Position numbers and translations under genes: made by a program
Notes under the pieces: model-generated
Databases searched by the model: none
What the model saw: only the letters and a program-made list of their open reading frames with translations
What the model was told of the DNA's origin: nothing
Shown here: piece after piece, positions 12,437 through 47,177 of the stretch
How the letters are laid out: each line of letters starts with the position of its first letter
Position numbering within the stretch: position 1 is the first letter of the stretch
Origin: Candidatus Nanohalarchaeota archaeon
GTDB lineage: Archaea; EX4484-52; B79-G9
Length of the DNA stretch: 48,754 nucleotides
Reading direction: 5' to 3'
NCBI GenBank assembly: GCA_030634545.1
Contig: DAOWAN010000003.1
Span: 1 to 48,754, forward strand

Positions 12437-13465
12437 TTAATCAGAAATTGGAGTACTGCCATGAATTCTCTCAAAGTCATCTGTAAACTTATCTGCAATT
12501 TCCTTATCGTGAATTATCAGAATGTTCTCATCATTTTTGGTGTCTCCTGCTTTTGTAGGGTTAAATGAGCCTGTAACAACAATAGTTTTATCTATAATAA
12601 ATACCTTATTGTGCATATTCTTAGGATTGCTATCCCAAATCACAGGTACGTCATTCTCTAGAAGTTTTTCATATTCACACCATTTACTTTTCTGGAATTT
12701 CTCAAAAACACCGCGCACCTGTACGCCACGATTATGCGCATCAACCAGCGCATCCCCTATCCCGTCATGCGTGAATGTAAAGCACATAAAATCTATTGAG
12801 TCGGTTGCTCCTGAAATCAGTTCTATGATATGCTCTGCGCACTTGTCTTCAGGACAGAAATAATTCTCATAACGGATATCGTTAAGATAGATCACAGGAT
12901 TGCGCACTGTGTCTCCACTTCCAAATACCCTGCTTTCCAGTTCTGAAAACTCATCCTCGTAATTAGAAGAGAGGTATTTTGAATATATTACAAGCATATT
13001 GTTGTCATTTTTCATGCCGGTGATTGTAGGATTGTACGAACCCATAAATACAATCTCACTGTCTATGATGCAGAATTTATCGTGCATCAGCTGGTGCGTA
13101 CCGATATTAGATACATAATCAATCCCGTAAAGGTGTTTGGTGTTATCTTTATCTGTCACAAGTTGTACATCGATATCTTTTGCCTTTGCTTTAAGTGCAT
13201 CAACAATTCCCTCTAGTTCAACGTCATATAAAGCGCAATGGATAGATACATTCGCGCTTTCAATCAGGGTCCTTAGCCGGGTCTCGCAGCCATCCGCAGG
13301 ACAGAACAGTACTTCCGGCGCTAAATTTGTCTCACGGATATCCCCGTCGGGTAAAATCACATTGCTGACAATAGAGGTATCCTGCATGAACACAAACCCT
13401 GCAATTAAAACCAGTATGAAAAAAATATTCCACTTCTTAACTCTTCTCTTTCGCCTGCCCATCAT
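12437..13465 (-). CDS. Membrane-anchored phospholipase D-family protein (two HKD motifs), probable nuclease
   Basis: MHDKFCIID..GSYN and MHNKVFIID..GSFN; N-terminal TM helix. Confidence 0.88.
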   Translation of the reverse strand: MMGRRKRRVKKWNIFFILVLIAGFVFMQDTSIVSNVILPDGDIRETNLAPEVLFCPADGCETRLRTLIESANVSIHCALYDVELEGIVDALKAKAKDIDVQLVTDKDNTKHLYGIDYVSNIGTHQLMHDKFCIIDSEIVFMGSYNPTITGMKNDNNMLVIYSKYLSSNYEDEFSELESRVFGSGDTVRNPVIYLNDIRYENYFCPEDKCAEHIIELISGATDSIDFMCFTFTHDGIGDALVDAHNRGVQVRGVFEKFQKSKWCEYEKLLENDVPVIWDSNPKNMHNKVFIIDKTIVVTGSFNPTKAGDTKNDENILIIHDKEIADKFTDDFERIHGSTPISD

Positions 13466-14646
13466 TCTCCCTCCTTCTTTTTACTTAAACTTACTTTATG
13501 ACTTGTCTCTTCACTACTGAAAGCCTTTATCTTTTCGGCGACCCTGTTGTCAAGCAGAGTCTCTTTCATGACGCGCTTAAGAGCAAATACATCAAGACCT
13601 GATGCCTTATCCCATAATCCGGTCTTCTTTAGATAAGCTTCCAGTTCTTTTCGCTTTTCATCTCCTGCTTTAGGGTATTTTACGTCTATGCTCTCTGTGA
13701 CTTTCGCAATATAGTCATTGCTTTCAACTGCGCTCATGTGGTTCTTGGTGCAATACTCAATGAGCGCATCACGAATATCATCCAGCTCATCACTTATCGT
13801 TTTTTTGCGCAGCTTCAAAAGAGCATATTTATCGACCAGCTCAACCCCGGATCCGTAGATATCATTTTTTTTATTTTCTGCACTGAACTTATGCTTGTGT
13901 ACAGGGCATATTGCCTGATACTCGCACCACGAGCATAATTTTGATGCATTGGGAAGAAAGTCACCTTTGTCTTTTGCATCTTCAATTATTCCAATCTTTT
14001 TGATTATGCTGTTTTTGACGTCTTTTAGTTCCTTTTCAGTGCGCAGATAGCTGAATTCCTTGTTGAATGCAAGATAATGCCATATTACGCGTATGTTTTT
14101 TGCGTCAGCATACATATCCCTGACTGCAAGAGCGTACAATGATAGCTGTTCATCTCTTTTCAGGACTGCCTGTGGCGGCAGGCTTCCCGAGGTCTTGTAA
14201 TCGTGTATCTCATATATGGAGTCTTTTGCTGTAGCGAGTCTGTCTATGTAGCCTATGATAGTATGCCCGTCCAGCTTCAGATTGACTTTCTGCTCAAGGC
14301 TTACGGTTGTGCCTGATGTAAACGGGAAATTCTTCTTATAGTAATCTGCGATATATTTTCTGCCCATATCAAGATAATTTTCTTTACAATAGCCTTTCTT
14401 GATTATACGGATAGCGTCACTATACTTCTTATTCCATCTGTCCTCATAGTACGTATTCAGATTGTCTGCGCTGTTCTCTTTATGGCGCTTGAGGTCTGAG
14501 TAGAGCATCTCAAGTGTCTCATGTACGCGCTTGCCGAGAAATGCTTCGATGCCTTCAAAGCGCTCTACTTTCACTTTGTCAATATAGCGGTACCTGAACA
14601 TCAGAGGGCAGTTGAAATAAGTGTTTATCTTTGAATAAGAATACAT
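13462..14646 (-). CDS. PD-(D/E)xK nuclease (RecB/AddB/Cas4-like) with four-Cys cluster and C-terminal extension; start uncertain
   Basis: SYSKINTYFNCP, GYIDRL, IHDYKT, QLSLY and CSWCEYQAICP motifs. Confidence 0.88.
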   Translation of the reverse strand: MYSYSKINTYFNCPLMFRYRYIDKVKVERFEGIEAFLGKRVHETLEMLYSDLKRHKENSADNLNTYYEDRWNKKYSDAIRIIKKGYCKENYLDMGRKYIADYYKKNFPFTSGTTVSLEQKVNLKLDGHTIIGYIDRLATAKDSIYEIHDYKTSGSLPPQAVLKRDEQLSLYALAVRDMYADAKNIRVIWHYLAFNKEFSYLRTEKELKDVKNSIIKKIGIIEDAKDKGDFLPNASKLCSWCEYQAICPVHKHKFSAENKKNDIYGSGVELVDKYALLKLRKKTISDELDDIRDALIEYCTKNHMSAVESNDYIAKVTESIDVKYPKAGDEKRKELEAYLKKTGLWDKASGLDVFALKRVMKETLLDNRVAEKIKAFSSEETSHKVSLSKKKEGE

Positions 14647-14730
14647 GGGGTGTAATTTACGGGCAAGATTCATATTTCTTTGCCTGCAGCCAAGATATTT
14701 CTTTTCTATGCTTCTGGTAGCGAGCATACC

Positions 14731-32779: not shown

Positions 32780-32950
32780 CTTTGTTTTGTAAATTGGGGT
32801 GTTGAATGGGTTTGGTTGGTTTTGGTTGTTTTTAGAAGTCATCATCTCGTGTGTTTTGTATTTGCATGGATTGTGAACGAAATTATTTATAGCTTCGTGT
32901 GAATTATGTGTCTTTTCGTTCAAATCACATAATAAATAAGAAAAAATGAA

Positions 32951-33376
32951 TTATTCTGGATGATTGATTGCTCCAGATTTACTTAGTGATTTATCATGGC
33001 GCAATATATCTTCTGCTTTGAGATGGATTAAGTCTTTTTTCACTTTTTCAATAGTTCCATTTAATTTAGATATTCTTGCCATTGCCTTATCGTCTTTAAA
33101 TTTCAAAATATTTGCATATTCCTTTTTTTTCTTATATCTAAACGTTGTTAGTTGAGTTGTTAATTTGTGTGCTTTAGATTGAAGGATTTTATCTTTTATT
33201 TTAAGTTCTTGGACCCATTTTTCCTTTTCTTTTCCCGTAGTAGTTGCCACTTTCATCTGGAGATACCTTACTCGATTCACTGCAATATCTTTCTTGGTTA
33301 CAGTATTTCTTCTTTTACCATTATAAACGACTCCAGATCCTAAACGATAATTTTCATATGAAATGTCATACCCCAT
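32951..33376 (-). CDS. Basic coiled-coil hypothetical protein
   Basis: 141 aa, Lys-rich; GGTGA SD. Confidence 0.7.
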   Translation of the reverse strand: MGYDISYENYRLGSGVVYNGKRRNTVTKKDIAVNRVRYLQMKVATTTGKEKEKWVQELKIKDKILQSKAHKLTTQLTTFRYKKKKEYANILKFKDDKAMARISKLNGTIEKVKKDLIHLKAEDILRHDKSLSKSGAINHPE

Positions 33377-33465
33377 AAAATCACCAGATATTTTTGTTAT
33401 TATATTGATATCTTACGCAACCAATAAATTTAAAATATCTCAACATAATAATACGTTTGAGATTC

Positions 33466-34974
33466 ATGTTTGAAAAAGACTCCTGTTTTCTGGTTGACCT
33501 CCGTAGATGTAGAGACCTCAAATTTAAAGATTTAGTAGAATTACAAGAGTTTCAACAAAAACTTGATTATTTTAGGATATCAAACCCCAAACACCTCAAT
33601 TTTTCAATAAACAAATTGCCAATAGTTCTCAAAATACATTCTACAACGATGGATAAATTCCACAATAGCACTATTGGTTCAAAAATTACGGTGGATGGCT
33701 ACTTAGAGCCATATTTCCCTAAAAAAATGGAAACAAGAACAATTTTAAAATATCTAGAGACACATGGTTTTCAAGTAAATGAGGGATTTAGAACTTATGC
33801 ATTTTATGCCGTATCTTCAAAGATACCAACAGAGGTCATAATAATTGCCCCCAGAGAATATGAATTTGTTATAAACTCTGAAATGCCACACACACTAAAA
33901 ATCATAAATCTAAAGCGAATAAAATATCAAACAATAGCGTTGCTGCAAGATGTTCCTGAACCGATAACACTAAAAATACCCCCAATTGAGACACCATATC
34001 CCGTATTGACTTTAAAAGAGATAAGAAAGTGTATAACACAAATATCTTCACTAGATTCTCCTGATAAACAAATAATTGATGCGCTAATTGCACCCAATAT
34101 TGGTTCAGATTTTGTTAAAAAACATGTTGAAACCGACGGCATTGGTTCTTCATATGTTCACAATAAAACTGTTGAGCAAGATGTAACTCTGCTTAATAAT
34201 ATGTTAAAAGAATCTAGTTCGGGCTTATCTCTACAAGATTATGGCATCATTAATATTTCAAATAAACATAATTCCCATTTACTTAACATAAAACGAAGAG
34301 ATCCTTTAGTCCTTAAAATGTGTAATGTTTTCTCATGGGATATCCCATCCTCATTAAATAGAAACAATTTACCGCTATCAGAATATAGAATGAATCCAGA
34401 GGGTATTAATATTATAGATACAAAAGACATACAGAATAACACCGCACTCCAATATTCCATTTTACATTATGGTCTACTTAGAAAAGGTCTAGTTAGTACA
34501 ACAACACATGACATGATTTGTAAAAAATTGATAGATAACGTATCTGAGTTAATGCAAGATAAAACAAATAGTATCAACAAAATCATGGACATCAATTCAC
34601 TACCCAAACAAGCAGGCAGAGTAGTTTCTTTTTACAAGAAGTTCAATATCCCAAACGCACTAGATGTAGCATATAAAAGTATAGATGACGGTATTGATTC
34701 AATACTTCAGGATGATGTCTTTTTAATGAACTGTAAAGAGTCACATCAATTATCTACAGAAAATATACCTATAGATATAATGAAAGCTTATCATTCATGC
34801 CCAAAAAAAACAAAGGATAATATTATTGAGCATATTATGGAAAGAACGGGATGGTCTGAAAAACGTGCTGAAAAGGCATTTGACGAATTAGTTGAGAATG
34901 GTACATTTACAGCATATGATAATGTACATTATCGTTTTACCCACGATGCTAATTATGAACTTACAGAAGCATAA
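33466..34974 (+). CDS. Hypothetical protein with C-terminal winged helix, possibly a degenerate MCM-like protein
   Basis: IGSKITVDGYL resembles the start of the MCM OB fold; WH-like C-terminus; no Walker A. Confidence 0.7.
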   Translation: MFEKDSCFLVDLRRCRDLKFKDLVELQEFQQKLDYFRISNPKHLNFSINKLPIVLKIHSTTMDKFHNSTIGSKITVDGYLEPYFPKKMETRTILKYLETHGFQVNEGFRTYAFYAVSSKIPTEVIIIAPREYEFVINSEMPHTLKIINLKRIKYQTIALLQDVPEPITLKIPPIETPYPVLTLKEIRKCITQISSLDSPDKQIIDALIAPNIGSDFVKKHVETDGIGSSYVHNKTVEQDVTLLNNMLKESSSGLSLQDYGIINISNKHNSHLLNIKRRDPLVLKMCNVFSWDIPSSLNRNNLPLSEYRMNPEGINIIDTKDIQNNTALQYSILHYGLLRKGLVSTTTHDMICKKLIDNVSELMQDKTNSINKIMDINSLPKQAGRVVSFYKKFNIPNALDVAYKSIDDGIDSILQDDVFLMNCKESHQLSTENIPIDIMKAYHSCPKKTKDNIIEHIMERTGWSEKRAEKAFDELVENGTFTAYDNVHYRFTHDANYELTEA

Positions 34975-35051
34975 CATATTCATATAAATCTTACAACACA
35001 ATAAAAATAGAGAAACAATAACCATTGAATCAATATTACATAAAGATGAAA

Positions 35052-35261
35052 TTAAAAATCAAACTTAAACCCCAAATCTTTTGCTACATCTTTAAGTTTT
35101 CTCACTTTACCTTCTCTTACTTGCATTTTTCCTTCGATAACTTCTTTTTTCAGTTTAGGATTATAAAGTATTTCTAATGTTGATTTCATAGAATTATATT
35201 CATCAGTAGTTATTGTTATCCATTCAGTTTCATGTCTACCACTAATCATTGCTTCGCTCAT
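35052..35261 (-). CDS. Antitoxin-like protein (similar to the Phd/YefM C-terminal half)
   Basis: DEYNSMKSTLEIL..GKVRKLKDV. Confidence 0.7.
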   Translation of the reverse strand: MSEAMISGRHETEWITITTDEYNSMKSTLEILYNPKLKKEVIEGKMQVREGKVRKLKDVAKDLGFKFDF

Positions 35262-35367
35262 TATTTAATATTAAATCTTAAATTTTATAAAATTAGATTT
35301 ACTTTCTAACCTGAAAATTAAAAACAGTTGGATAAGGGTTATCCATTTTTTATAAAAACCTTCTCCT

Positions 35368-35895
35368 TTAATTGAATTTTAATTTCTTTTTATAATCTTT
35401 AATATCATCTTCATGTCTCAAACATGTGAAATGTGGAATATACACTAGTTTTACATCTTTCAGTTCTTCTTTGATATCTTTTTCAAGATATTTAGAAAAG
35501 AGTTCTTCTGCATTTCTACCCATGAGAAATATCTTTTTTAGCTTTTCTTTTCCTATTTCCCACTTGATAATTTCCAGATACAATATCATTTCTTTTATTA
35601 TTTCTGGATCTGAGTTTTTCTTATATTTGCGGTAGTATTCTTCTGCTTCTTTTGCAGTCATCCTTTTTTTGATGAAATCAGTTAAATGCGCACCAGATAG
35701 ATGTGCTTCTTCTAGATGTTTATAATGTTTGTCAAGCTGTTTTGTTCGTGTCCTGTTTTTGTTTGGACAGAATGATATTATCATTACGTCTCTCCACCCA
35801 TAAAATCCTTTGATGATCTTATCTGTTGGGTACATCCCGTCTTTTTTGTAATCCCCTATTATTTTCTTTTGTTGCATATTTAATTTGTGCATCAT
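35368..35895 (-). CDS. Possible uracil-DNA-glycosylase-fold protein
   Basis: LTDFIK, IFLMGRNAE and YIPHFT motifs; TAATG coupling to the upstream gene. Confidence 0.6.
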   Translation of the reverse strand: MMHKLNMQQKKIIGDYKKDGMYPTDKIIKGFYGWRDVMIISFCPNKNRTRTKQLDKHYKHLEEAHLSGAHLTDFIKKRMTAKEAEEYYRKYKKNSDPEIIKEMILYLEIIKWEIGKEKLKKIFLMGRNAEELFSKYLEKDIKEELKDVKLVYIPHFTCLRHEDDIKDYKKKLKFN

Positions 35896-36590
35896 TATAC
35901 TCTCCTAATATAAGCATGTCTGGGTTCGAACAGTTCACCTTCCCGCTTTAACTTTTTGATTATTTCTTCTGCATCTTCAATACCCTGTTCCTCAGCACAC
36001 ACTTTCACATCTTCTATAAGCACAGACTTATCCTCTCTTTCACCTTGCATTTCTTTAACTAGTTTACAGATGATACGCATTTTATTATTTATGGTTTTAC
36101 CTTCATCGGTATCGTAATCAATTACATCATCATCTAATATTACAAGTTCTAATTTTTCGGCAATTATTGTCGGATTTATCTTTCTTGTGTTCCTTGCGAA
36201 TTCTATATTGATTTTGCCTTCTATATGTACTAGGTTTTCTTCTTTGACAATATCTTTTTTTGAAATAAATTTCTCAGGAATTATAACATCAACATGAATG
36301 GAACGATATAGACTATTACCCCATTCAAGTATTATCCTCTGTGTAACTTCTGTTACGACATTTTTTATCTCAAAACTTGTTTTATTACCACAATCGCAAA
36401 ATGGTTTTTTCAATTTTTCAGATTCTTGTAATTCTGTTAGTTTTTTACCACATTCTTTACACTCAAATGTGACTTCTATTGCATGCTGTTCGATATTATC
36501 AATACGTGTAATCACACCATTTATTCCTACTATATCACCATTATTATGATGAGTAGATAAGAAATCATAATAATTTTCGAAGAACTTCAT
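35895..36590 (-). CDS. MCM-derived protein: OB/Zn-finger fused to the C-terminal winged helix, no AAA+ domain
   Basis: GDIVGINGVITR, FECKECG..CDCG, QRIILE and EEIIKKLKREGELFEPRHAYIRRV. Confidence 0.8.
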   Translation of the reverse strand: MKFFENYYDFLSTHHNNGDIVGINGVITRIDNIEQHAIEVTFECKECGKKLTELQESEKLKKPFCDCGNKTSFEIKNVVTEVTQRIILEWGNSLYRSIHVDVIIPEKFISKKDIVKEENLVHIEGKINIEFARNTRKINPTIIAEKLELVILDDDVIDYDTDEGKTINNKMRIICKLVKEMQGEREDKSVLIEDVKVCAEEQGIEDAEEIIKKLKREGELFEPRHAYIRRV

Positions 36591-36833
36591 GTTATTTCTT
36601 AAAAAAAGAAAATTAATAAACTTATAGTCCAAATTATGCACGCTTTTGCAAAAGATTATTTTTGTAGCGCAAGTGAAAAAAAACAATATTCTCAGCCCAC
36701 ATATTCTAATGAGTCTTTGCAGGTTGATGAAAACAATATTAACAACACATTACTATCAAACTCAGTCAACCTATAAAAAGTGATATTGTTTCTGCGTTAT
36801 ATTTTTATAGTACACCTACCAATAAATCATATT

Positions 36834-37199
36834 ATGACAGCCAATATTGTAGCGCCTAACAAATCAATATTTTCATCAAGACCAGAACCCATGTGGTTTG
36901 TTAAAATTGAAAAGATACTTGCTCACCGAGTAAAAATCAAATTCTTACAGAAAGTGCTTGTCTCTGGGAAAGAAGAAAATGATAAACTAACAATTAACAT
37001 CTTTCCGAAAGAAATAGAGGATAAAACAACTTGCAGTATAAAAGTAACAATCCATCAATATGATAATATTGTAAATAATATTGATGTGAAATATTACATT
37101 GGATACACAATCAAAGGACATTTTATTTTTGTATTATCATTTCCTGAATATTCATCTGACATATTAGAAAGTGATAGAATTGAACTTGTACCGAAATAG
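36834..37199 (+). CDS. Hypothetical protein
   Basis: AT-rich 121-aa ORF. Confidence 0.5.
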   Translation: MTANIVAPNKSIFSSRPEPMWFVKIEKILAHRVKIKFLQKVLVSGKEENDKLTINIFPKEIEDKTTCSIKVTIHQYDNIVNNIDVKYYIGYTIKGHFIFVLSFPEYSSDILESDRIELVPK

Positions 37200-37294
37200 A
37201 GTTGTTCTCAGAATTCTCCATAAATAGATTTTAATTCATCGCACATAATCCCGTTCATCTATTATTCAGATTCATACGTTACATTTATGGCGAG

Positions 37295-37376
37295 AATTTA
37301 TGTTTTTTCTTAGGGTTTTTGTTAGGGCGTCAAGCAGTCTGCGCTCTGTCAATTGGGTCTTTTGGTTGTCTTTGAA
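37295..37376. repeat. 82-bp direct repeat, orphan copy of the 3' end of the radical SAM gene
   Basis: 71/82 identical to 42498-42579 by manual alignment. Confidence 0.9.
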
Positions 37377-37380
37377 TGTG

Positions 37381-40300
37381 TTAGTGTTTTTTGTTTTTCG
37401 GGACATGCTTTTTATATTTTATTGGTTCTGCGCGGTTCTTTTTCATGAAGATTGCCCTTAAAAATATGCCTACAATTATGGCTATCAACACAATCATGAT
37501 GCTGTCTAAACCAGGGGCGTATTTTGATATTGTCGAGGCTGCAAGTCCTGTCGGTCCCATGTCTTCCTGCGCAGTACGGTCTGATGAGGTTAGCACTCTC
37601 TTTTCTTCATCTTCTTTTGTGTCGGGGATGTCATGTGCGGATATGTATTTTGGGGTTTTTGGTTCTATTTCACATGTTTGGGATTCTGCTGATTTGTTTT
37701 CTTCTGTGGCGCAAACATTGCGGTCTGTACAGGTTCGGGTCTGCCTGTTGTTTTCGCATGAGGACCATTCTGTACATGTCCAATCTTCTGTGCAGGCTGC
37801 GCTTTGTATTATTGCTGGAGCGGGGGTCCTGCTGCTTGTGCTGCTGCCGATGTTGTTGTTATCTTCTTCGGGCGGGTCCTCGCCTTGGATGCTTGCGAAT
37901 GAACCGTAATGGCTGAAGTGTGTAACATTTGCCCATACATAGTTGTCTATTACATTTACTCCGGTGTTTTCACATGCTGTCCATTCATTTAGGGTTTCGT
38001 TCAGATAGTACATCTTTAGTGTGTTTTCGTCTATCCCGGCAGCGCTTAGTTCGCTGTCATTGTAGTGCATCTTTATCATTGCCCAGTTCATATTGCCTTC
38101 AAGGTCGTCATTTACTTCTATCTGGATGAATCTATTCCAATCTGTCATTCCTGAAGGGGTTGTGTTACCGGGGTTGTTTAAGTGTTCTATCAGGTTTACT
38201 GAGGCGTTTGTTGAATCTCCTACTTTTATCTGTAAGGTCAGTTCACCTTCAGTTATGTTAATGGAACTGTCTTTTGGTATATTTACGTTTACTAAAGCCA
38301 CGTTGAATTGCTTTGATGCTTCTGCGGTCCAATTTTTACCAGAATAGTCTGTATAATTGTAGAGCAGGGTGAGGATGTAATCACCGGGTTTCAATATATT
38401 TGCTCTCCAGTTTTGAGCAAGATCAATGCTTTCACCACCGGAGATATGAACATTCTCTATCTTTGATATTATCGTTGTATGGTTCTCATATGCTACCTGC
38501 CAGAATACTGTGCCGGTGGTCTGTTTATACAGATACTCTTCAGTGTTCGTCAATTGCGCTTTTGCAATAACTTCTTCTGTCGGGCTATATTCCTGTTTAT
38601 CAATATCAAGTGAGATGTCAACCATAGGCTTTACAAGAGATATCATAAGCGGGATAGTGTCTGACCAGGAACCTTCTAATACCTCATGATTTTCACCACT
38701 ATACCAATCACCTGTCAAATACAGAGTAGCAGAATAGGTTTCTGATGTTGCGTTATCCGGCAGTCTTATACTTAGTGATATGTTTTCTGTATCTGTGAAA
38801 TAATCGGTTGGTCTATTGATTACAGAAATCCAGTCACATTCTGCTTCACTCACTACCCAGATGTTCAGATCAAAAGGATATTCCTCATAATACAGACCTT
38901 CGCCTACCAGCACGATTGTCCATAGTCCTGATTCATAATTCTCTGTCAAATAGAGGTATCCGGAAATATCACTGCCATAAGTATTCATTGATTGTTCAAC
39001 CAATGTTCCATTCCCATCGAAAATATATAATTCGAAAGTATTCAAATAGGCAAGAGAATCCAGATGCGCCTCAAACTTTAGATGTTCATCATTATTCAAT
39101 TGCTCCTGTGTTATGTTGAAATTATAGTAGCGGTATGAATTACTGAACGGTCCTAAGGTATTGTTTTTATCAATATCGGAGGCAGGGACAATGTCCAGAG
39201 GAGTTTCAACCCAGACATTGCTTTCAGTGGAGTTTAGAAGAAAATCTGAATCCAGGAAATTTGTCAGGTTTATGGTCACGTTGGTGGTTTCGTTTGGCTC
39301 TAAAGTAATCCTGGAGCTTTTTAGATTGGCAGTCATGCCAGGATACCAAATCTCACCTGAAAATTGAAGACCTGCATCATCTTCCAGGTATAAGTTCTCT
39401 GACTCAATAACCACTGTCCAATTGCCTTCTAAAGGTTCGCGTAGGTATGAGTTCTCTATACTACCTTCAAGATCTGATGCATCATATTCTTTTCCTGCCG
39501 GGTCATATACGAATAGTCTCAAGTCATTATAACTTCCGGGAGCGTAATCTCTTATCCAAAGAGATATCTTCAGATAAGGTATTTGGGGCAGCACTTCAAA
39601 GGAAAATGCTCTTCTTTCATTTGAACTACAGAAATATCCGTCAAATGATGCTATTCTGTTAGTGTATCCCATAGATGAACCAGAACCTCCAGAGGAAGGC
39701 GGTTGTGCATAATTACCCGTACCACAAATATTACTTCCAAAATACTCATGTGTCGCATATGATTTAAATTCTATTGGTTCTGAAACTATGATCGATGCAG
39801 GAATCATAACATCTTCATCAATTGAATTTAGTTTTATCTTTCCTGCATATAATCCGGATATATCTGCATCAGGTATTATTGTAAGTCCGTTTTCTGAATA
39901 ATTGAACCAGTCCCACGTTTCAGGTTTATATGTTTTCAAAGTGATTGTAACATTTACTTCTCCGGAAACACTATATGGGTAAACATACAGGCGCCAAAGA
40001 CCATCTTTGGGCTTGTAGACAAATATGCTTTCTGAGTCAATTATGCCATAAGACCCGGAATAGTGCATATTCACTGGATCATATAGAGTCATGTCAATAT
40101 CATTGGAACTATTGTTCCAATTTATGGAGATATTAAATGAGTAGGCATCGTCAGGCATATAAAAGGTGTAATTAAATCCGATTGTAGAATTTACTGTATC
40201 GTAATCTGTTATCAGATCTATGATTTGCGTACCATCTTTAATGGCAGATAAAGCAGGATCAGTTAATGTCGTATTTAGAGTGATTGTTGTCTGCCTGCCA

Positions 40301-42324
40301 TTTTGAATGATAAGATTTAACAGGGACGGTGTCGCAAGAATTTTTGACTCCTCTGCTAATTCATGAGCATCTGAAACATTGATTAAACCTGCTCCCTGAA
40401 CAAATACTCTTTCACCAAAATCTTCGGCTGTATTCATTAAAATCTCTTTTATCTCATCCGGAGTCAGGTCGGAATCTGTCTGTTTCAATAGTGCTACTGC
40501 GCCTGCGACGTGCGGGGCGGCCATACTTGTGCCGCTAGCAGAGGTATAATGCGGAGTGTATAAAATACCCATATCAGTGCTACCTGACCTTGCTGAAATT
40601 ATTGAAACACCGGGGGCAACTAATTCCGGTTTTATTCTGCCGTCTGATGTGGGACCGATACTGCTGAAAGATGCAATCTGTCCTGATTGCGCATATTTGT
40701 ATGAAGCACCAACAGTAATCACTTTTTTTGCACAGCCGGGAGTAAGGATTGTTTCATTACCCCACCAGCCATAATTTCCTGCTGCTATAACTACCACTGT
40801 ACCCATATCCCATGCTTTTTCTGCTGCCTGCGCCAAAGGATCATTTCCATCACAAATGTTTTGCCCACCACCTAAACTCATAGAGATCACATCTGCTCCA
40901 CTTAGTACAGCCCATTCTATGCCCGCTATTATCCCTGAATCATATCCATAGCCATCATCACTTAGGATCTTGCCATTCAATAGCTGAGCGCCGGGCGCTA
41001 CACCTTTAAAAATATCCGGCTGATAATCCAAATTGATATCCAATCCTATTGTCAGATTATTGTCTTCTGAATCGATTTGAGAGACAAGATATTCTGTAGA
41101 ACCCCAAGAACCATAACATACCCCCCAATAATCACATACAGAATAATATTTTTTAAAATGCTCATTCTCAAATGCTTTCATCTGGTCGAGCATTGTGTTG
41201 AAGTCCCCGTCTTCATCAAGATAAATTAAACTGTAATCGGAGGTGATTTCTACGAAACCATTTATGCCTGTGCTGAAATTAAATGTAACATTACCCCAAT
41301 CTTGTGTCCCTGTGCCAGTTATCCATGATTTCCCACCATCAATACTGAAATCGTAAATATGTGTCTCATTTCTATTAATGTCCAATGTATAATTCTCATT
41401 TTCCTGGACCATCAATACATAATCATCTGTATCGTATCCCCACCAACCGGATGGGATGTCATAATTAGATACCTTAGAATCAGGGGTTATCTTAAATATC
41501 CATTTTGTGAGAAGTACATTATACATATCAACTAATTCGACTATTCCTACATGCGGTGTCTGTTCCGGATTCGGTATGTTTGTCAAACCGCTTGTATCTG
41601 TAGAGATTGTGTCTACAAAGATTGTGGAGCCAGCACCGCTCCCGGCAATTATGCCTGCGCAGTGTGTTCCGTGCCCGTAGCCATCTGATGCGTCTAATCT
41701 GTTATCGAATAAAGTGAAATCTCTTTCTAAAATAATCTTATCTTTCAGTCCGGGATGATCTTTGTCGATTCCTGTGTCTAAAACCGCTATCTTTACCCCT
41801 GTACCATCAATGCCATTGTCCCAGACAAATGGTGCGCCAATCGCTTTTGTGCTTTCACTGAGAAGAGGAGTGAATTTTCCTTTTTCTCTCAATTCCTGCA
41901 TTTCCTGTTCAAAGCCTTCATCCGGTTTTGGTATCTGTACTTTTTTGTCTAAATAGATTCCTTTAATGTTGGTATCTGAAGCTATGTTTTGGATGTTTTC
42001 GTGAGGGATGTCCAGGGCGATTGCGCCTATCAGTTCATAGATGTATTTTATCTTTGCATTATTCTGGTTTAAAAAATTGATGACTTCGTCCTTGTGTTTG
42101 ATGTCAGTTAAAGTAACTATCACCGGTACGTCTATTGGTGTCGGTTGACTCAATTGAGTATTTAGGGTGGATACTGCGGTCTGCGGTTGTTGTGATGTTT
42201 TTTCAGATATTTCCTGTAAATGTTCTACAAGAGCAGGGCCAATTATTGTTGGCTCTGAGTGTACTGAATTTGCGAGAAGCATTAAAAAGAACACACATGA
42301 CCAGATTAGAGTTAACTTTTTCAT
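37381..42324 (-). CDS. Large membrane-anchored S8 subtilase
   Basis: Signal peptide and propeptide; VLDTG, HGTHCAG and GTSMAAPH motifs; CTEDWTCTEWSSC motif; C-terminal TM helix. Confidence 0.93.
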   Translation of the reverse strand: MKKLTLIWSCVFFLMLLANSVHSEPTIIGPALVEHLQEISEKTSQQPQTAVSTLNTQLSQPTPIDVPVIVTLTDIKHKDEVINFLNQNNAKIKYIYELIGAIALDIPHENIQNIASDTNIKGIYLDKKVQIPKPDEGFEQEMQELREKGKFTPLLSESTKAIGAPFVWDNGIDGTGVKIAVLDTGIDKDHPGLKDKIILERDFTLFDNRLDASDGYGHGTHCAGIIAGSGAGSTIFVDTISTDTSGLTNIPNPEQTPHVGIVELVDMYNVLLTKWIFKITPDSKVSNYDIPSGWWGYDTDDYVLMVQENENYTLDINRNETHIYDFSIDGGKSWITGTGTQDWGNVTFNFSTGINGFVEITSDYSLIYLDEDGDFNTMLDQMKAFENEHFKKYYSVCDYWGVCYGSWGSTEYLVSQIDSEDNNLTIGLDINLDYQPDIFKGVAPGAQLLNGKILSDDGYGYDSGIIAGIEWAVLSGADVISMSLGGGQNICDGNDPLAQAAEKAWDMGTVVVIAAGNYGWWGNETILTPGCAKKVITVGASYKYAQSGQIASFSSIGPTSDGRIKPELVAPGVSIISARSGSTDMGILYTPHYTSASGTSMAAPHVAGAVALLKQTDSDLTPDEIKEILMNTAEDFGERVFVQGAGLINVSDAHELAEESKILATPSLLNLIIQNGRQTTITLNTTLTDPALSAIKDGTQIIDLITDYDTVNSTIGFNYTFYMPDDAYSFNISINWNNSSNDIDMTLYDPVNMHYSGSYGIIDSESIFVYKPKDGLWRLYVYPYSVSGEVNVTITLKTYKPETWDWFNYSENGLTIIPDADISGLYAGKIKLNSIDEDVMIPASIIVSEPIEFKSYATHEYFGSNICGTGNYAQPPSSGGSGSSMGYTNRIASFDGYFCSSNERRAFSFEVLPQIPYLKISLWIRDYAPGSYNDLRLFVYDPAGKEYDASDLEGSIENSYLREPLEGNWTVVIESENLYLEDDAGLQFSGEIWYPGMTANLKSSRITLEPNETTNVTINLTNFLDSDFLLNSTESNVWVETPLDIVPASDIDKNNTLGPFSNSYRYYNFNITQEQLNNDEHLKFEAHLDSLAYLNTFELYIFDGNGTLVEQSMNTYGSDISGYLYLTENYESGLWTIVLVGEGLYYEEYPFDLNIWVVSEAECDWISVINRPTDYFTDTENISLSIRLPDNATSETYSATLYLTGDWYSGENHEVLEGSWSDTIPLMISLVKPMVDISLDIDKQEYSPTEEVIAKAQLTNTEEYLYKQTTGTVFWQVAYENHTTIISKIENVHISGGESIDLAQNWRANILKPGDYILTLLYNYTDYSGKNWTAEASKQFNVALVNVNIPKDSSINITEGELTLQIKVGDSTNASVNLIEHLNNPGNTTPSGMTDWNRFIQIEVNDDLEGNMNWAMIKMHYNDSELSAAGIDENTLKMYYLNETLNEWTACENTGVNVIDNYVWANVTHFSHYGSFASIQGEDPPEEDNNNIGSSTSSRTPAPAIIQSAACTEDWTCTEWSSCENNRQTRTCTDRNVCATEENKSAESQTCEIEPKTPKYISAHDIPDTKEDEEKRVLTSSDRTAQEDMGPTGLAASTISKYAPGLDSIMIVLIAIIVGIFLRAIFMKKNRAEPIKYKKHVPKNKKH

Positions 42325-42495
42325 TGAATTACCACCTTAAATATATAATTTAGTGGAAGAATGGTTAACACACACCTTTATATATGTTACTCTTTGTGAA
42401 TGATTAAAATAGATTTTAGGTTTTTTGTGTATGGCTATAATTCAGGTGAGTTATCTTTGAATCGATTACTTAGAATCCTGCTTATATCCCACTGG

Positions 42496-43818
42496 TTAAT
42501 TTGTGTTTTTTCTTAGGGTTTTTATTAGGGCGTCAAGTAATCTGCGCTCGGTGAGTGGGGATTTTGGGTTGTCTTTGAAGTCTTTGTATGTGTTTTTGTC
42601 CAGACAGGAGATGAGAGGGAGGTTTTGTTTTTTGCATGCGTTTTTTAGGGCAGTGTAGCTTTCTGAATCGGGTTTGAAGTATGCGAAGAGCTTTTCGTAT
42701 CTGTGGGATTTCAGGTAGTTTTCGATTCTATCTTGTGTTGTTTTTAGGTATTGTTTTTTTATCTCGGGGGTCTCTTCCCATTCGGGCCAGTCGTAGTGGG
42801 CGAAGGGGTATTTGGTCTCGAATTCGCGGGGGATTATGCCTGGATTTGAGATCATGAGATGGTGGAGGTTTGCGTAGGCGGACAGGGATTTTAGGCGCCT
42901 CGTGATTTCTTTGTGAGTTTTTGAGTATGAGTAGGGTTTGCGGTATGCGCAGGGGAGGAAGAGAGCGTATTTTTTTATTTCGGGTTTTTCGTAGAAGCGC
43001 ACTATGTAGTCCTGCCAGAGGTCGTAGATTGGGTTTTCAAGGTTTTCTTTTGTCGCGCCGATCAGAGGGGTCTGGTCTTTGAAGCGTGGGTATGAGATGT
43101 AGTCGTCATAGTAGATGTCGATTTTTTTGTCTGCGCGGTGCTTTTTTACGAGGGTGTTGAATTCGCTTTTGTTTAGTGGGCGCCATGTTTTTTTCAGCCA
43201 TAGATTGAAGAGTGGGGCGTAGCCGTATGGGTAGGTGTTTATGATTGCGATTGTGTCTGAGTGTTTTTGCGCGAATTCTACGGAGTCGTCGAGGGAGCTT
43301 TGGATGTCTTTTGTGTATGGGAGGTTTGCCATGAGGTATGTCCGTATGTAGAAGCCTTGTTTTTTCAGGAGGGATGCGGCGTTTTGGTAGTCTTTTGTTG
43401 TGAAGCCTTTGCAGATTTTTTTTAGTATGCTGTTGTCGGATGTTTCGAGTCCGAGTGCGAAGTATATTTTTAGTCTGTTGTTTTTGTTTGCGTCTTTTAG
43501 GATTTTTAGGTTTTGGGGGGTTATGTGGTCCGGGCGGCTTTCGATTATTAGTTGTTTTATGTCTAAGTCGATGCATTTTTGGATGAGGTATTTTTGGAAG
43601 TCTTCAGGGATTTGGTTTTTGTCCAGGAATGAGCCGGAGTTCAGGTATTTTAGGGTGTGGTAGGTTTTGGTCAGTCTTGCGTCCAGCTGGTGCTTTAGGC
43701 GGTTGAAGTCAGGCTCTGGGAGGTCGGGTTTTTTGCTGAAGCTGCAGAAGATACAGCGCGCCCATGAGCAGCGACCTGATTCGGTTATGATGGTCAGTTC
43801 TGTTTTGTCTGTCGGCAT
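42496..43818 (-). CDS. Radical SAM (RaSEA-like) fused to an ArcS/DUF5591-like domain; putative archaeosine synthesis protein
   Basis: CSWARCIFC, NSGSFLD, IESRP and GLET in the N-terminal part; LFLPCAYRKPYSYSKTH and YPFAHYD in the C-terminal part. Confidence 0.75.
   Translation of the reverse strand: MPTDKTELTIITESGRCSWARCIFCSFSKKPDLPEPDFNRLKHQLDARLTKTYHTLKYLNSGSFLDKNQIPEDFQKYLIQKCIDLDIKQLIIESRPDHITPQNLKILKDANKNNRLKIYFALGLETSDNSILKKICKGFTTKDYQNAASLLKKQGFYIRTYLMANLPYTKDIQSSLDDSVEFAQKHSDTIAIINTYPYGYAPLFNLWLKKTWRPLNKSEFNTLVKKHRADKKIDIYYDDYISYPRFKDQTPLIGATKENLENPIYDLWQDYIVRFYEKPEIKKYALFLPCAYRKPYSYSKTHKEITRRLKSLSAYANLHHLMISNPGIIPREFETKYPFAHYDWPEWEETPEIKKQYLKTTQDRIENYLKSHRYEKLFAYFKPDSESYTALKNACKKQNLPLISCLDKNTYKDFKDNPKSPLTERRLLDALIKTLRKNTN
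42498..42579. repeat. 82-bp direct repeat, in-gene copy
   Basis: Matches 37295-37376. Confidence 0.9.
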
Positions 43819-46207: not shown

Positions 46208-47134
46208 TTATAATTCTTTTTCAAACCACACATCATTATGTATAAAACCAGTATTGCCTAATGGTTTTTTTATTCTTTTAAATCCAAATTCACGATATAA
46301 ATTGCAAGCTAAACTCATTTCTTTAATGGTTTCTATATAACATTTTTTATATCCTTTTTCTTTTGCCTTATTTAAACATAACAGTAATAATTTTCTTCCT
46401 ATTCCTATCCCTCTAAACTCAGGTAACAAGTACATTTTTTGTAATTCACATATTTTATCTTTAGTTCCTTTTAATGGAGCAATGCCCGCTCCCCCTACTA
46501 TTCGATTGTCTTTTTCAACCACATAAAATTCTGATTTTCTTTTACTAAATGCACCATACATATTCTTGGTATTGCTATCAGATAATGAGTACCTATATAT
46601 TTTATTGCCACCAAACTCTTTTCTAACCGTATGGATGATATACTCTAAAGGCTTATTATCTTCTCGTTTTATTTTTCTGATGTTTAATTTAGCTTGGTTA
46701 TTAACATATTTGATTACTTTTGCATACTTTTTTAGACCATTTATTATGACTTTTTTATCATCTTCATTTAATAGCTGTAAAGCATCTTTCACAATATTAT
46801 CAGCATCATCATTAATCTTTTGAATTATCTTAAAAGATCTATTTGTTAAACAAATCAATTTTTCTCTGCTATCAAATGAGTTGGGGCTAATCGTAACTAG
46901 ATTTAAATTAGATAATTGTTTGATTGTGCGACTTATAGTAGATTTATCCAATTTTAAAAATTTAGAAATACTTGAAATTGTTAAATAATTATATTTCTGT
47001 AATTCAATTAGTATATGACACTGTGTGATTGATAAATTTGTTGATTTTTGTTTCCAAGATAAAATCCCTAATTCTCTAACAATCTGTCTTGAAGCTTCCC
47101 TTACTTCTTGTATTTCGTTTGAAATCATAAGCAT
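46208..47134 (-). CDS. MarR-HTH plus GNAT acetyltransferase fusion (low GC)
   Basis: LDKSTISRTI..DSREK; GGAGIAPL..CELQKMYLLPEFRGIGIG. Confidence 0.92.
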   Translation of the reverse strand: MLMISNEIQEVREASRQIVRELGILSWKQKSTNLSITQCHILIELQKYNYLTISSISKFLKLDKSTISRTIKQLSNLNLVTISPNSFDSREKLICLTNRSFKIIQKINDDADNIVKDALQLLNEDDKKVIINGLKKYAKVIKYVNNQAKLNIRKIKREDNKPLEYIIHTVRKEFGGNKIYRYSLSDSNTKNMYGAFSKRKSEFYVVEKDNRIVGGAGIAPLKGTKDKICELQKMYLLPEFRGIGIGRKLLLLCLNKAKEKGYKKCYIETIKEMSLACNLYREFGFKRIKKPLGNTGFIHNDVWFEKEL

Positions 47135-47141
47135 CTCATTT

Positions 47142-47177
47142 ATTGCTTCATACAATTAGTTAGTTGTATTATACAAC
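47142..47177. promoter_or_regulatory. Probable MarR operator pair
   Basis: Perfect palindrome GTTGTAT-T-ATACAAC (47163-47177) and imperfect ATTGCTTCATACAAT (47142-47156), between the TATA box and the start codon. Confidence 0.65.

Follow-up and report, generated by a model that had tools for sequence, protein, structure and literature searches.

The archaeal replicative helicase MCM ends in a small winged-helix (WH) domain whose role is still being worked out: it auto-inhibits the enzyme, impedes its assembly and may contact the loader. According to the accessible text of the respective reports, deletion of the WH raises the ATPase activity of an archaeal MCM 3-5 fold (PMC4357721), the WH of a mesophilic MCM impedes oligomerisation and slows assembly (PMC13049513), and ATP-bound Orc1-1 recruits MCM to origins (PMC12141716). 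Extra MCM copies in archaea often come from integrated elements, as the portions available of two further papers state (PMC3914693, PMC3307487). Here we describe a gene that joins an MCM-type WH to part of the MCM N-domain, with the motor between them gone. It lies on contig C143 of a Candidatus Nanohalarchaeota genome (G000), which we analyzed over its whole 48,754 nt (the window, to which all coordinates refer unless another locus is named). The gene, P0001 (35895-36590, minus strand; 231 amino acids, aa), encodes a zinc-finger (Zn)/OB module corresponding to subdomains B/C of MCM, a linker and an MCM-type WH, with no subdomain A, AAA+ motor or lid. It belongs to island A, an AT-rich, strain-specific segment of ~4.4 kb with six open reading frames (ORFs; 32893-37295; GC 29-32%, GC at third codon positions (GC3) 0.17-0.30), where it overlaps P0002 (35368-35895, minus strand; 175 aa), which encodes a protein resembling the uracil-DNA glycosylase (UDG) superfamily. 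We conclude that P0001 derives from the archaeal MCM helicase, is a genuine gene under selection and has lost the motor, and we call it and proteins of the same architecture mini-MCMs.

The P0001 ORF translates into 231 aa without a single internal stop. A longer version starting at a TTG (36686) is less likely than the ATG start, because a TATA-like sequence, TTTATTAA, stands 23-30 nt upstream of the ATG (36613-36620, minus strand) and the relatives of P0001 begin near the same point; judged by its position, it is a candidate archaeal promoter for a transcript with a short leader or none. In a Pfam scan, residues 16-80 matched MCM_OB (PF17207; 32.0 bits, curated cut-off 24.8) and residues 170-229 matched MCM_WH_arc (PF21120; 28.5 bits, curated cut-off 26.1), and the MCM P-loop domain (PF00493), the lid (PF17855) and MCM_N (PF14551) were unmatched. 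The host's own MCM scored 311.8 bits with PF00493 and 93.7 bits with PF17855. Just ~16 residues precede the OB in P0001, and helical subdomain A (PF14551) is missing from them; the NCBIfam model of the whole MCM matches in two stretches only (39.9 bits, cut-off 940).

Structural comparisons gave the same picture. A profile of P0001 and six relatives aligned to residues 99-265 of 1LTL (E 6.6e-19) and best of all to 8X7T (E 1.6e-24). It thereby covers subdomains B/C of solved MCM N-domains in full, and it further matched the solved WH domains 2M45 and 2MA3. An AlphaFold2 (AF2) model of P0001, made from a 44-row alignment that is misaligned around residues 129-160, reached a mean pLDDT of 86.7 and contains a complete OB/Zn module (residues ~17-150; 36141-36542, minus strand), a disordered linker (155-162) and a confident WH (164-231; 35898-36101, minus strand; pLDDT ~96). 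When this model was compared with the PDB by Foldseek, ranks 1-50, the rows listed, were all MCM subunits (1ltl_A, rmsd 3.3 Å over 138 columns). Aligned with 12 full-length MCMs, P0001 begins just short of the OB, continues to where the N-domain ends and resumes at the 'IDxD' linker that precedes the WH. On these alignments, the loss of the motor is a clean in-frame deletion running from the N-C linker up to the 'IDxD' linker, and the predicted anatomy, having no motor, excludes helicase activity. A preliminary description of the locus, made from the DNA letters, had proposed an intact gene with an MCM N-terminal OB/Zn module, an archaeal MCM WH and no Walker motifs; Pfam, profiles, AF2 and Foldseek bear out the two domains, and the uninterrupted translation, the lack of a PF00493 match and the alignment to 12 MCMs bear out the intact, motor-less frame.

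The part of P0001 that is retained from the N-domain has changed in ways that bear on DNA binding. The presumed Zn ligands Cys44, Cys47, Cys65 and Cys67 are invariant in all seven mini-MCMs that we recognize. The ssDNA (single-stranded DNA)-binding MSSB arginines, defined by R124 and R186 of PfMCM in the text available to us (PMC3970758), fare differently: the first is present in 22 of 22 MCMs of the phylum, but P0001 has Glu34 in its place and no more than three of the seven mini-MCMs have R or K there; the second position is ambiguous in P0001, with R96 two residues off. The N-terminal hairpin is also shorter than in full MCMs by 5 residues. The replacement at the first position weakens the suggestion that P0001 is an ssDNA sensor.

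To see how selection has acted along the protein, we aligned it with MCMs from 22 genomes of the phylum, which is represented by 42 species genomes of 0.5-2.2 Mb in the collection used. The host assembly (2.18 Mb, 88% complete, 7.4% contamination) encodes a 671-aa MCM with all five domains on contig C64, and the flanking genes in the window are 73-88% identical to those of same-genus genomes, so contig C143 belongs to that genus, g1. The WH of P0001 (residues 166-231) is 71-79% identical to the MCM WHs of genus g1 (47 of 66 residues, or 71%, for the host's own MCM), 59-64% identical to those of two other genera of the same family and 33-61% identical to the rest. The Zn/OB1 region (residues 17-90), by comparison, is 30-41% identical to every MCM of the phylum with no gradient (30-33% for g1), and OB2 (residues 91-150) is 10-18% identical (10-15% for g1). 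Genuine MCM orthologs are 55-100% identical over the N-domain columns, and in most comparisons their N-domain is at least as conserved as the WH. Read from these alignments, the constraint on P0001 runs opposite to that on real MCMs: its WH follows the host genus, and the OB surface, including the ssDNA-binding Arg, has drifted far.

Because synonymous sites of the P0001 WH are saturated against any MCM (proportion of synonymous differences, pS, 0.77-0.95), we compared pS with the proportion of nonsynonymous differences (pN) in place of dN/dS. Against genus g1 MCMs, pN is 0.13-0.19 in the WH, at a pS of 0.85-0.95; against MCMs, it is 0.41-0.46 in Zn/OB1 and 0.57-0.63 in OB2. A WH pN this low at saturated pS, which answers the check on selection proposed earlier, indicates that the WH is under strong purifying selection. 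Its divergence from the WH of MCM is old rather than the trace of recent gene conversion.

These identities bear on whether P0001 is simply a DNA-binding regulator of the island, such as a transcription factor or a partition or origin binder, whose MCM ancestry is irrelevant to its present function. Zn-ribbons and winged helix-turn-helix domains are common parts of regulators, P0001 has weak Pfam matches to Zn_ribbon_8 and DUF5817_CT, and its gene heads a small operon that has a TATA-like box to itself. Such a regulator would not need a WH 71-79% identical to that of the host MCM, nor repeated matching to different genera as described below, and the archaeal MCM WH is truncated and lacks wings, at least as described in the accessible text of PMC4357721. 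We therefore give this explanation little credence.

Mini-MCMs are not confined to this locus. A word-indexed search of 5.8 billion proteins returned P0001 alone. In an exhaustive HMMER scan of 1.84 billion representatives, 194 proteins reached E <= 0.001. The best 150 of these 194 are almost all full MCMs (many with inteins) or fragments, and they include at least six short proteins (222-333 aa) that span the N part and the WH: P0007 (333 aa), P0008 (222 aa), P0106 (238 aa), P0132 (260 aa), P0151 (233 aa) and P0150 (296 aa, matched in two stretches). PF00493 is missing from all six in a Pfam scan. MCM_OB exceeds its cut-off in four of them; MCM_WH_arc matches in four, above cut-off in P0008 only, and P0150 has no Pfam match whatsoever. 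Subdomain A (PF14551) is retained only by P0007 among the seven. Each relative forms a singleton cluster, and one, from a Nanoarchaeota metagenome-assembled genome, carries the annotation 'hypothetical protein'. A domain-exact deletion of the motor thus recurs across seven sequences, the others being 21-32% identical to P0001. The preliminary description had called for a search for the same architecture elsewhere and had allowed that the gene might be a one-off deletion allele without homologs or selection; six further N + WH proteins without AAA+, together with purifying selection on the WH, speak otherwise. Searches for relatives of P0008 in viral contigs and of P0150 in genome contigs gave 39 and 44 pattern matches, respectively, none of which was confirmed.

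The same skew toward the WH is seen in two of these relatives. P0007 is 75-85% identical to MCMs of genus g6 in the WH, 58-59% in Zn/OB1 and 40-45% in OB2; the corresponding values for P0008 are 64-66%, 42-44% and 20%. In a tree of WH domains, P0001 is nested inside genus g1 (support 92/90), beside the MCM of the same-genus genome G003, and P0007 and P0008 are nested inside g6, a different genus of the same phylum (100/98). A single clade for the WHs of P0001, P0007 and P0008 was rejected (delta-lnL 46.3, p-AU 6e-5) in an approximately unbiased (AU) test. Mini-MCMs may have descended repeatedly from host MCMs, or a single lineage may have swapped its WH with that of the host.

Several other incomplete MCMs were encountered. 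OB-only proteins (P0126 and P0141) and WH-only proteins also occur among the HMMER matches listed. Two candidates in related genomes (G039:C133 and G040:C58) were rejected as mini-MCMs, being full MCMs cut by contig ends. P0112, a 230-aa metagenomic protein in which a ribulose-phosphate 3-epimerase domain is fused to the final ~25 residues of an MCM WH, probably owes this chimeric form to gene calling or assembly. In genome G020 (contig C7), a 260-aa gene with the MCM N-domain only (L028:5545-6327, minus strand; MCM_N weak, MCM_OB 48.6 bits) lies directly 5' of a full MCM gene; on sequence, it is a tandem partial duplication, because its first ~65 residues are nearly identical to those of the adjacent MCM. 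In genome G013 (contig C45), a 146-aa protein (L027:894-1334, minus strand) ends in an MCM-type WH that is 40% identical to the WH of P0001 and begins with a piece weakly like the end of Mrr_cat; its gene adjoins an ORF with a SIR2_2 domain (L027:5-832, plus strand), a neighborhood that is possibly a defence island.

That P0001 is a functionless relic of a mobile-element MCM, in the course of decay, seems very improbable. The origin of many extra archaeal MCMs in integrated elements, the near saturation of OB2 (pN 0.60-0.63) and the solitary return of P0001 from the word-indexed search all suit a relic. A relic would not be expected to combine an intact frame and a confident fold with invariant Zn cysteines, a WH under constraint at saturated synonymous sites and a deletion that recurs, exact to the domain, in seven sequences.

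Our best reading, which we hold tentatively, is that P0001 is an island-borne, motor-less MCM mimic whose host-matched WH would modulate or exploit the loading or activity of the host MCM. We place the function in the WH because the constraint is inverted. P0001 would work through this domain as a mimic of the host MCM tail: a host-matched WH tethered to a Zn/OB module could rival the MCM tail for its partner, or attach to that partner, be it the Orc1/Cdc6 loader or the AAA+ tier of MCM, and the island, likely the remnant of a mobile element, could in this way damp or redirect loading of the host helicase. Alternatively, P0001 may serve to bring the co-encoded UDG-like enzyme to origins or forks. 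We count as a further link to MCM biology that the family of another island protein, of 505 aa, is found beside MCM genes in genomes G020 and G034. The earlier proposal of a helicase decoy or inhibitor agrees with the host-tracking WH; the inhibition itself is conjectural.

A number of observations weigh against this reading. No homolog of P0001 as a mini-MCM, and none of P0002, was found in the other 41 genomes of the phylum, and the pairing of a mini-MCM with P0002 is known from this one locus. In the AU test on the WHs of P0001, P0007 and P0008, the group was named after the tree had been seen, and the long branches P0106, P0132, P0150 and P0151 were left out. The tree of N-domains lacks resolution, and the branch of P0001 in it has a length of 6.2; the N-domain shows no host gradient and is most similar (40-41%) to genera g2 and g5, so that P0001 may be a chimera. 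The six island ORFs include no integrase, recombinase or virus or plasmid hallmark gene recognizable by Pfam or PHROG, and no att pair flanks the island, the only long direct repeat being one that brackets a neighboring subtilase segment; the likely status of island A as a mobile element rests on its foreign composition and its indel polymorphism. Finally, binding of P0001 to MCM, Orc1/Cdc6 or P0002 is putative, and that the MCM WH is the handle by which Orc1/Cdc6 recruits MCM to origins is drawn from general background.

A bolder generalization, which we regard as doubtful, is that mini-MCMs are recurrent, element-encoded 'MCM-tail mimics' of small-genome archaea whose host-matched WHs compete for Orc1/Cdc6 or clamp the auto-inhibited helicase, shutting down or hijacking host replication. 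If true, they would be the first natural inhibitors or adaptors that act in trans on the archaeal replicative helicase, teamed here with a non-canonical DNA glycosylase. Short of that, a selected motor-less protein that presents a host-matched WH would be a ready-made probe of the partners of the WH and of the effects of excess WH, and if P0001 does inhibit, it would reveal a new route by which mobile elements control replication in archaeal hosts.

The partner gene directly follows P0001. The TAA stop of P0001 and the ATG of P0002 share one base (TAATG), and the two genes are probably co-transcribed and translationally coupled. The P0002 family is rare and has five members, P0002 and four relatives that are 44-55% identical to it and all come from short metagenomic contigs (P0003, P0154, P0155 and P0156). 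P0002 itself matched no Pfam family; three of the five members match PF03167, with a best E of 8.2e-5 (P0003 scores 18.4 bits, cut-off 24.3). In the ESM Atlas, the top match of P0002 scores 0.95 and a UDG set makes up 15 of 30 matches. Alignment of the family with 11 family-4 UDGs of the phylum by hhalign is weak (E 0.044, probability 1.2%) and pairs the motif blocks in order, VMIISFCPN with IMLIGEAPG, HLTDFIKxR with YITxxVKCRP, and KIFLMGR with xIVPLGR, the fourth motif of P0002 being IPHF. There was no PDB sequence match, and a single-sequence AF2 model of P0002 was unusable (pLDDT 49). Searches with the P0002 alignment gave 587 pattern matches in viral contigs and 483 in genome contigs, none confirmed, and a degenerate DVMIISFCPN pattern had no match in metagenome contigs.

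We consider P0002 probably a divergent member of the UDG superfamily. All five members of the family have S[FY]CPN at motif A and IPHF at motif B, in place of the canonical GEAPG/GQDPY and HPS, and the 4Fe-4S cysteines that are present in the 11 family-4 UDGs of the phylum are absent. Replacement of the canonical motifs by new ones that are invariant within the family suggests an enzyme with a changed pocket, and the orphan partner may flag a new DNA glycosylase specificity. Of what had been proposed for this neighbor, the overlap of stop and start codons holds, the UDG-superfamily likeness is moderately supported by the PF03167 matches in three family members and not in P0002 itself, and the label of a base-excision-like effector stays uncertain, given the replaced UDG motifs.

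A UDG-like gene overlapping one that encodes OB, Zn and WH domains raises a different possibility, that P0001 binds ssDNA, alone or as a ring, and that its WH recruits the UDG-like enzyme in a pair that scans DNA for repair or modification. Eukaryotic RPA32 is built in this way, from an OB and a C-terminal WH that binds UNG2. Comparison of the P0001 model with a library of viral structures is in keeping with such a single-stranded DNA-binding protein (SSB): SSBs make up most of the named rows below rank 4, and at rank 2 stands an uncharacterised 218-aa protein from an uncultured archaeal virus (BFVD A0A1S5Y340; 222 columns, E 5.8e-5), a possible viral OB + WH counterpart of the mini-MCM, judged by its predicted structure. 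P0106 has a weak match to RPA_C (E 0.0037), and no PF03167 UDG gene was found in G000 (at 88% completeness, its absence is unproven), compared with 13 of 42 genomes of the phylum that have one; a family-4 UDG occurs in three of seven other genomes of genus g1. P0001 itself lacks an RPA family match, however, carries Glu34 where ssDNA would be bound, as most mini-MCMs lack R or K there, and is least constrained on its OB surface; nor would ssDNA binding explain why the WH matches the host MCM genus by genus. We consider this explanation unlikely. Prediction of a P0001-P0002 complex scored 0.00 in two runs for which controls were not run, and bears neither way.

Island A sets both genes apart from the surrounding chromosome. 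The GC3 of P0001 is 0.22, compared with 0.35-0.55 in flanking genes and 0.53 in the host MCM gene. In G003, the ortholog of an M24 peptidase gene is followed by ~160 bp and then by the ortholog of a radical-SAM/DUF5591 gene, so the window is longer by the region ~32.9-42.5 kb relative to G003; in G007, two unrelated ORFs occupy the spot of the island. Among contigs of co-occurring relatives from public sequencing runs, compared at >=80% likeness, those of runs X1 and X3 join 32892 directly to 37296, skipping 4403 bases, and one contig of run X4 joins 32892 to 42504, skipping 9611 bases. Another X1 contig, independent and 5783 nt long, covers 32833-38615 and differs at 1 position. Because contig joints skip the island and another contig from the same run carries it, island A is a discrete indel among related strains. 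In run X2, a small share of the sampled words is present, and contigs cover parts of the island, one of them joining 32951 to 35041. No RNA run was among the public runs listed for the stretch, which says nothing on expression, and a scan for sigma-70 promoters and terminators (30 sites, 28.8 expected) is uninformative for an archaeon.

The four other island ORFs give few clues to its nature. Scans with Pfam, PHROG and PADLOC assigned no family to a 141-aa ORF (32951-33376, minus strand), nor did Pfam and PHROG to a 139-aa ORF divergent from the mini-MCM gene (36780-37199, plus strand). A 69-aa ORF 3' of P0002 (35052-35261, minus strand), which has its own AT-rich upstream region and matches phrog_10078, of unknown function (E 3e-5), may belong to the same island module as P0002. 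The 505-aa protein (33457-34974, plus strand), with a WH-like C-terminus, represents a family of unknown kind found in seven of the 42 genomes of the phylum. In G020 and G034, a gene of this family comes immediately after the replicative MCM gene (relatives at L028:2005-3465, minus strand, and L034), overlapping it in G020. That the protein is a degenerate MCM is no more than a lead: hhalign found only a weak WH-like match at the C-terminus (E 0.039, probability 1.3%), hmmsearch with filters off gave ~0 bits, and there was no PDB or Pfam match. In the ESM Atlas, clusters named MCM or MCM-binding protein appear at 0.82-0.85 only and are not confirmed by hidden Markov model methods.

The location on a variable island would also suit a defence or abortive-infection module, in which P0001, as a decoy, would detect viral proteins directed against the host MCM tail and set off the UDG-like protein as effector. 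A host-matched WH suits a decoy, and the WH-only protein of G013 adjoins the SIR2_2-domain ORF mentioned above. The six island proteins, on the other hand, have no match in PADLOC-DB 2.0, leaving the earlier suggestion of a defence module unsupported; no toxin-like effector was recognised among them, the composition of the island is foreign rather than host-like, and the pair is seen at one locus. A defensive role thus appears improbable.

Other features of the window lie outside island A. An 82-nt copy of the 3' end of a radical-SAM gene (37295-37376) marks the right edge of the island, and a second copy, 87% identical, lies at 42498-42579. Together they bracket a segment of 5.2 kb, in which a 1647-aa subtilase-type surface protein (37381-42324) is the only one encoded. 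Contigs of X1 and X3 'go back' from 42490 to 37294, and both G003 and one contig of X4 lack the segment, which appears to have arisen at this hot spot by an insertion or duplication of its own. At 12437-14727 (minus strand), a 421-aa PD-(D/E)XK nuclease and a 342-aa protein with a double PLD domain, whose genes overlap, are possibly a nuclease pair. A MarR-GNAT fusion gene (46208-47155, minus strand; GC 27%, GC3 0.20), which stands among host-like genes next to those for a HicB-like antitoxin and an archaeal ATPase_2, may mark another foreign patch.

How, then, does the locus compare with known systems? P0002 has its core motifs in the order and at the spacing seen in the 11 family-4 UDGs of the phylum, but reads SFCPN for GEAPG and PHF for HPS, lacks the 4Fe-4S cysteines, falls below the Pfam cut-off and has no sequence match in the PDB. 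RPA32, from what is generally known of it, resembles the P0001/P0002 pair in coupling an OB and a WH to an enzyme of uracil-glycosylase type; P0001 nevertheless has no sequence relationship to it, its domains being MCM-derived and including a Zn finger. With the archaeal replicative MCM (the host's 671-aa protein; 1LTL, 4FDG and 8X7T; WH 2M45 and 2MA3), P0001 shares the Zn-finger/OB subdomains B/C and the truncated WH. It differs in lacking subdomain A, the P-loop and the lid, in the change of the MSSB Arg to Glu, in its short hairpin, in an OB that is 10-41% identical and in its foreign composition. The Bacillus cereus phage or prophage 'MCM-like' helicase, so far as the accessible text describes it (PMC2715239), is likewise a cut-down MCM relative on a mobile element, but one cut the other way, with the AAA+ motor retained and the MCM N-terminus gone. 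Comparable in setting are the extra or outlier MCMs derived from elements and the C-terminally truncated MCMs of haloarchaea (PMC3972481; PMC3914693, citing Krupovic et al. 2010), which in the available portions of these papers are also accessory MCM-derived genes on mobile or variable DNA. None of those described in the consulted parts of PMC3972481, PMC3307487 and PMC3914693 consists of N-domain and WH with the motor excised, nor has a WH that tracks its host, and full-text searches, whose scope did not extend to subscription papers and supplements, found no AAA+-less, truncated or 'mini' MCM of the N + WH form. Relative to the extra and truncated MCMs that we found in the open literature, as far as the accessible text of those reports goes, a motor-less N + WH MCM with a host-tracking WH is new.

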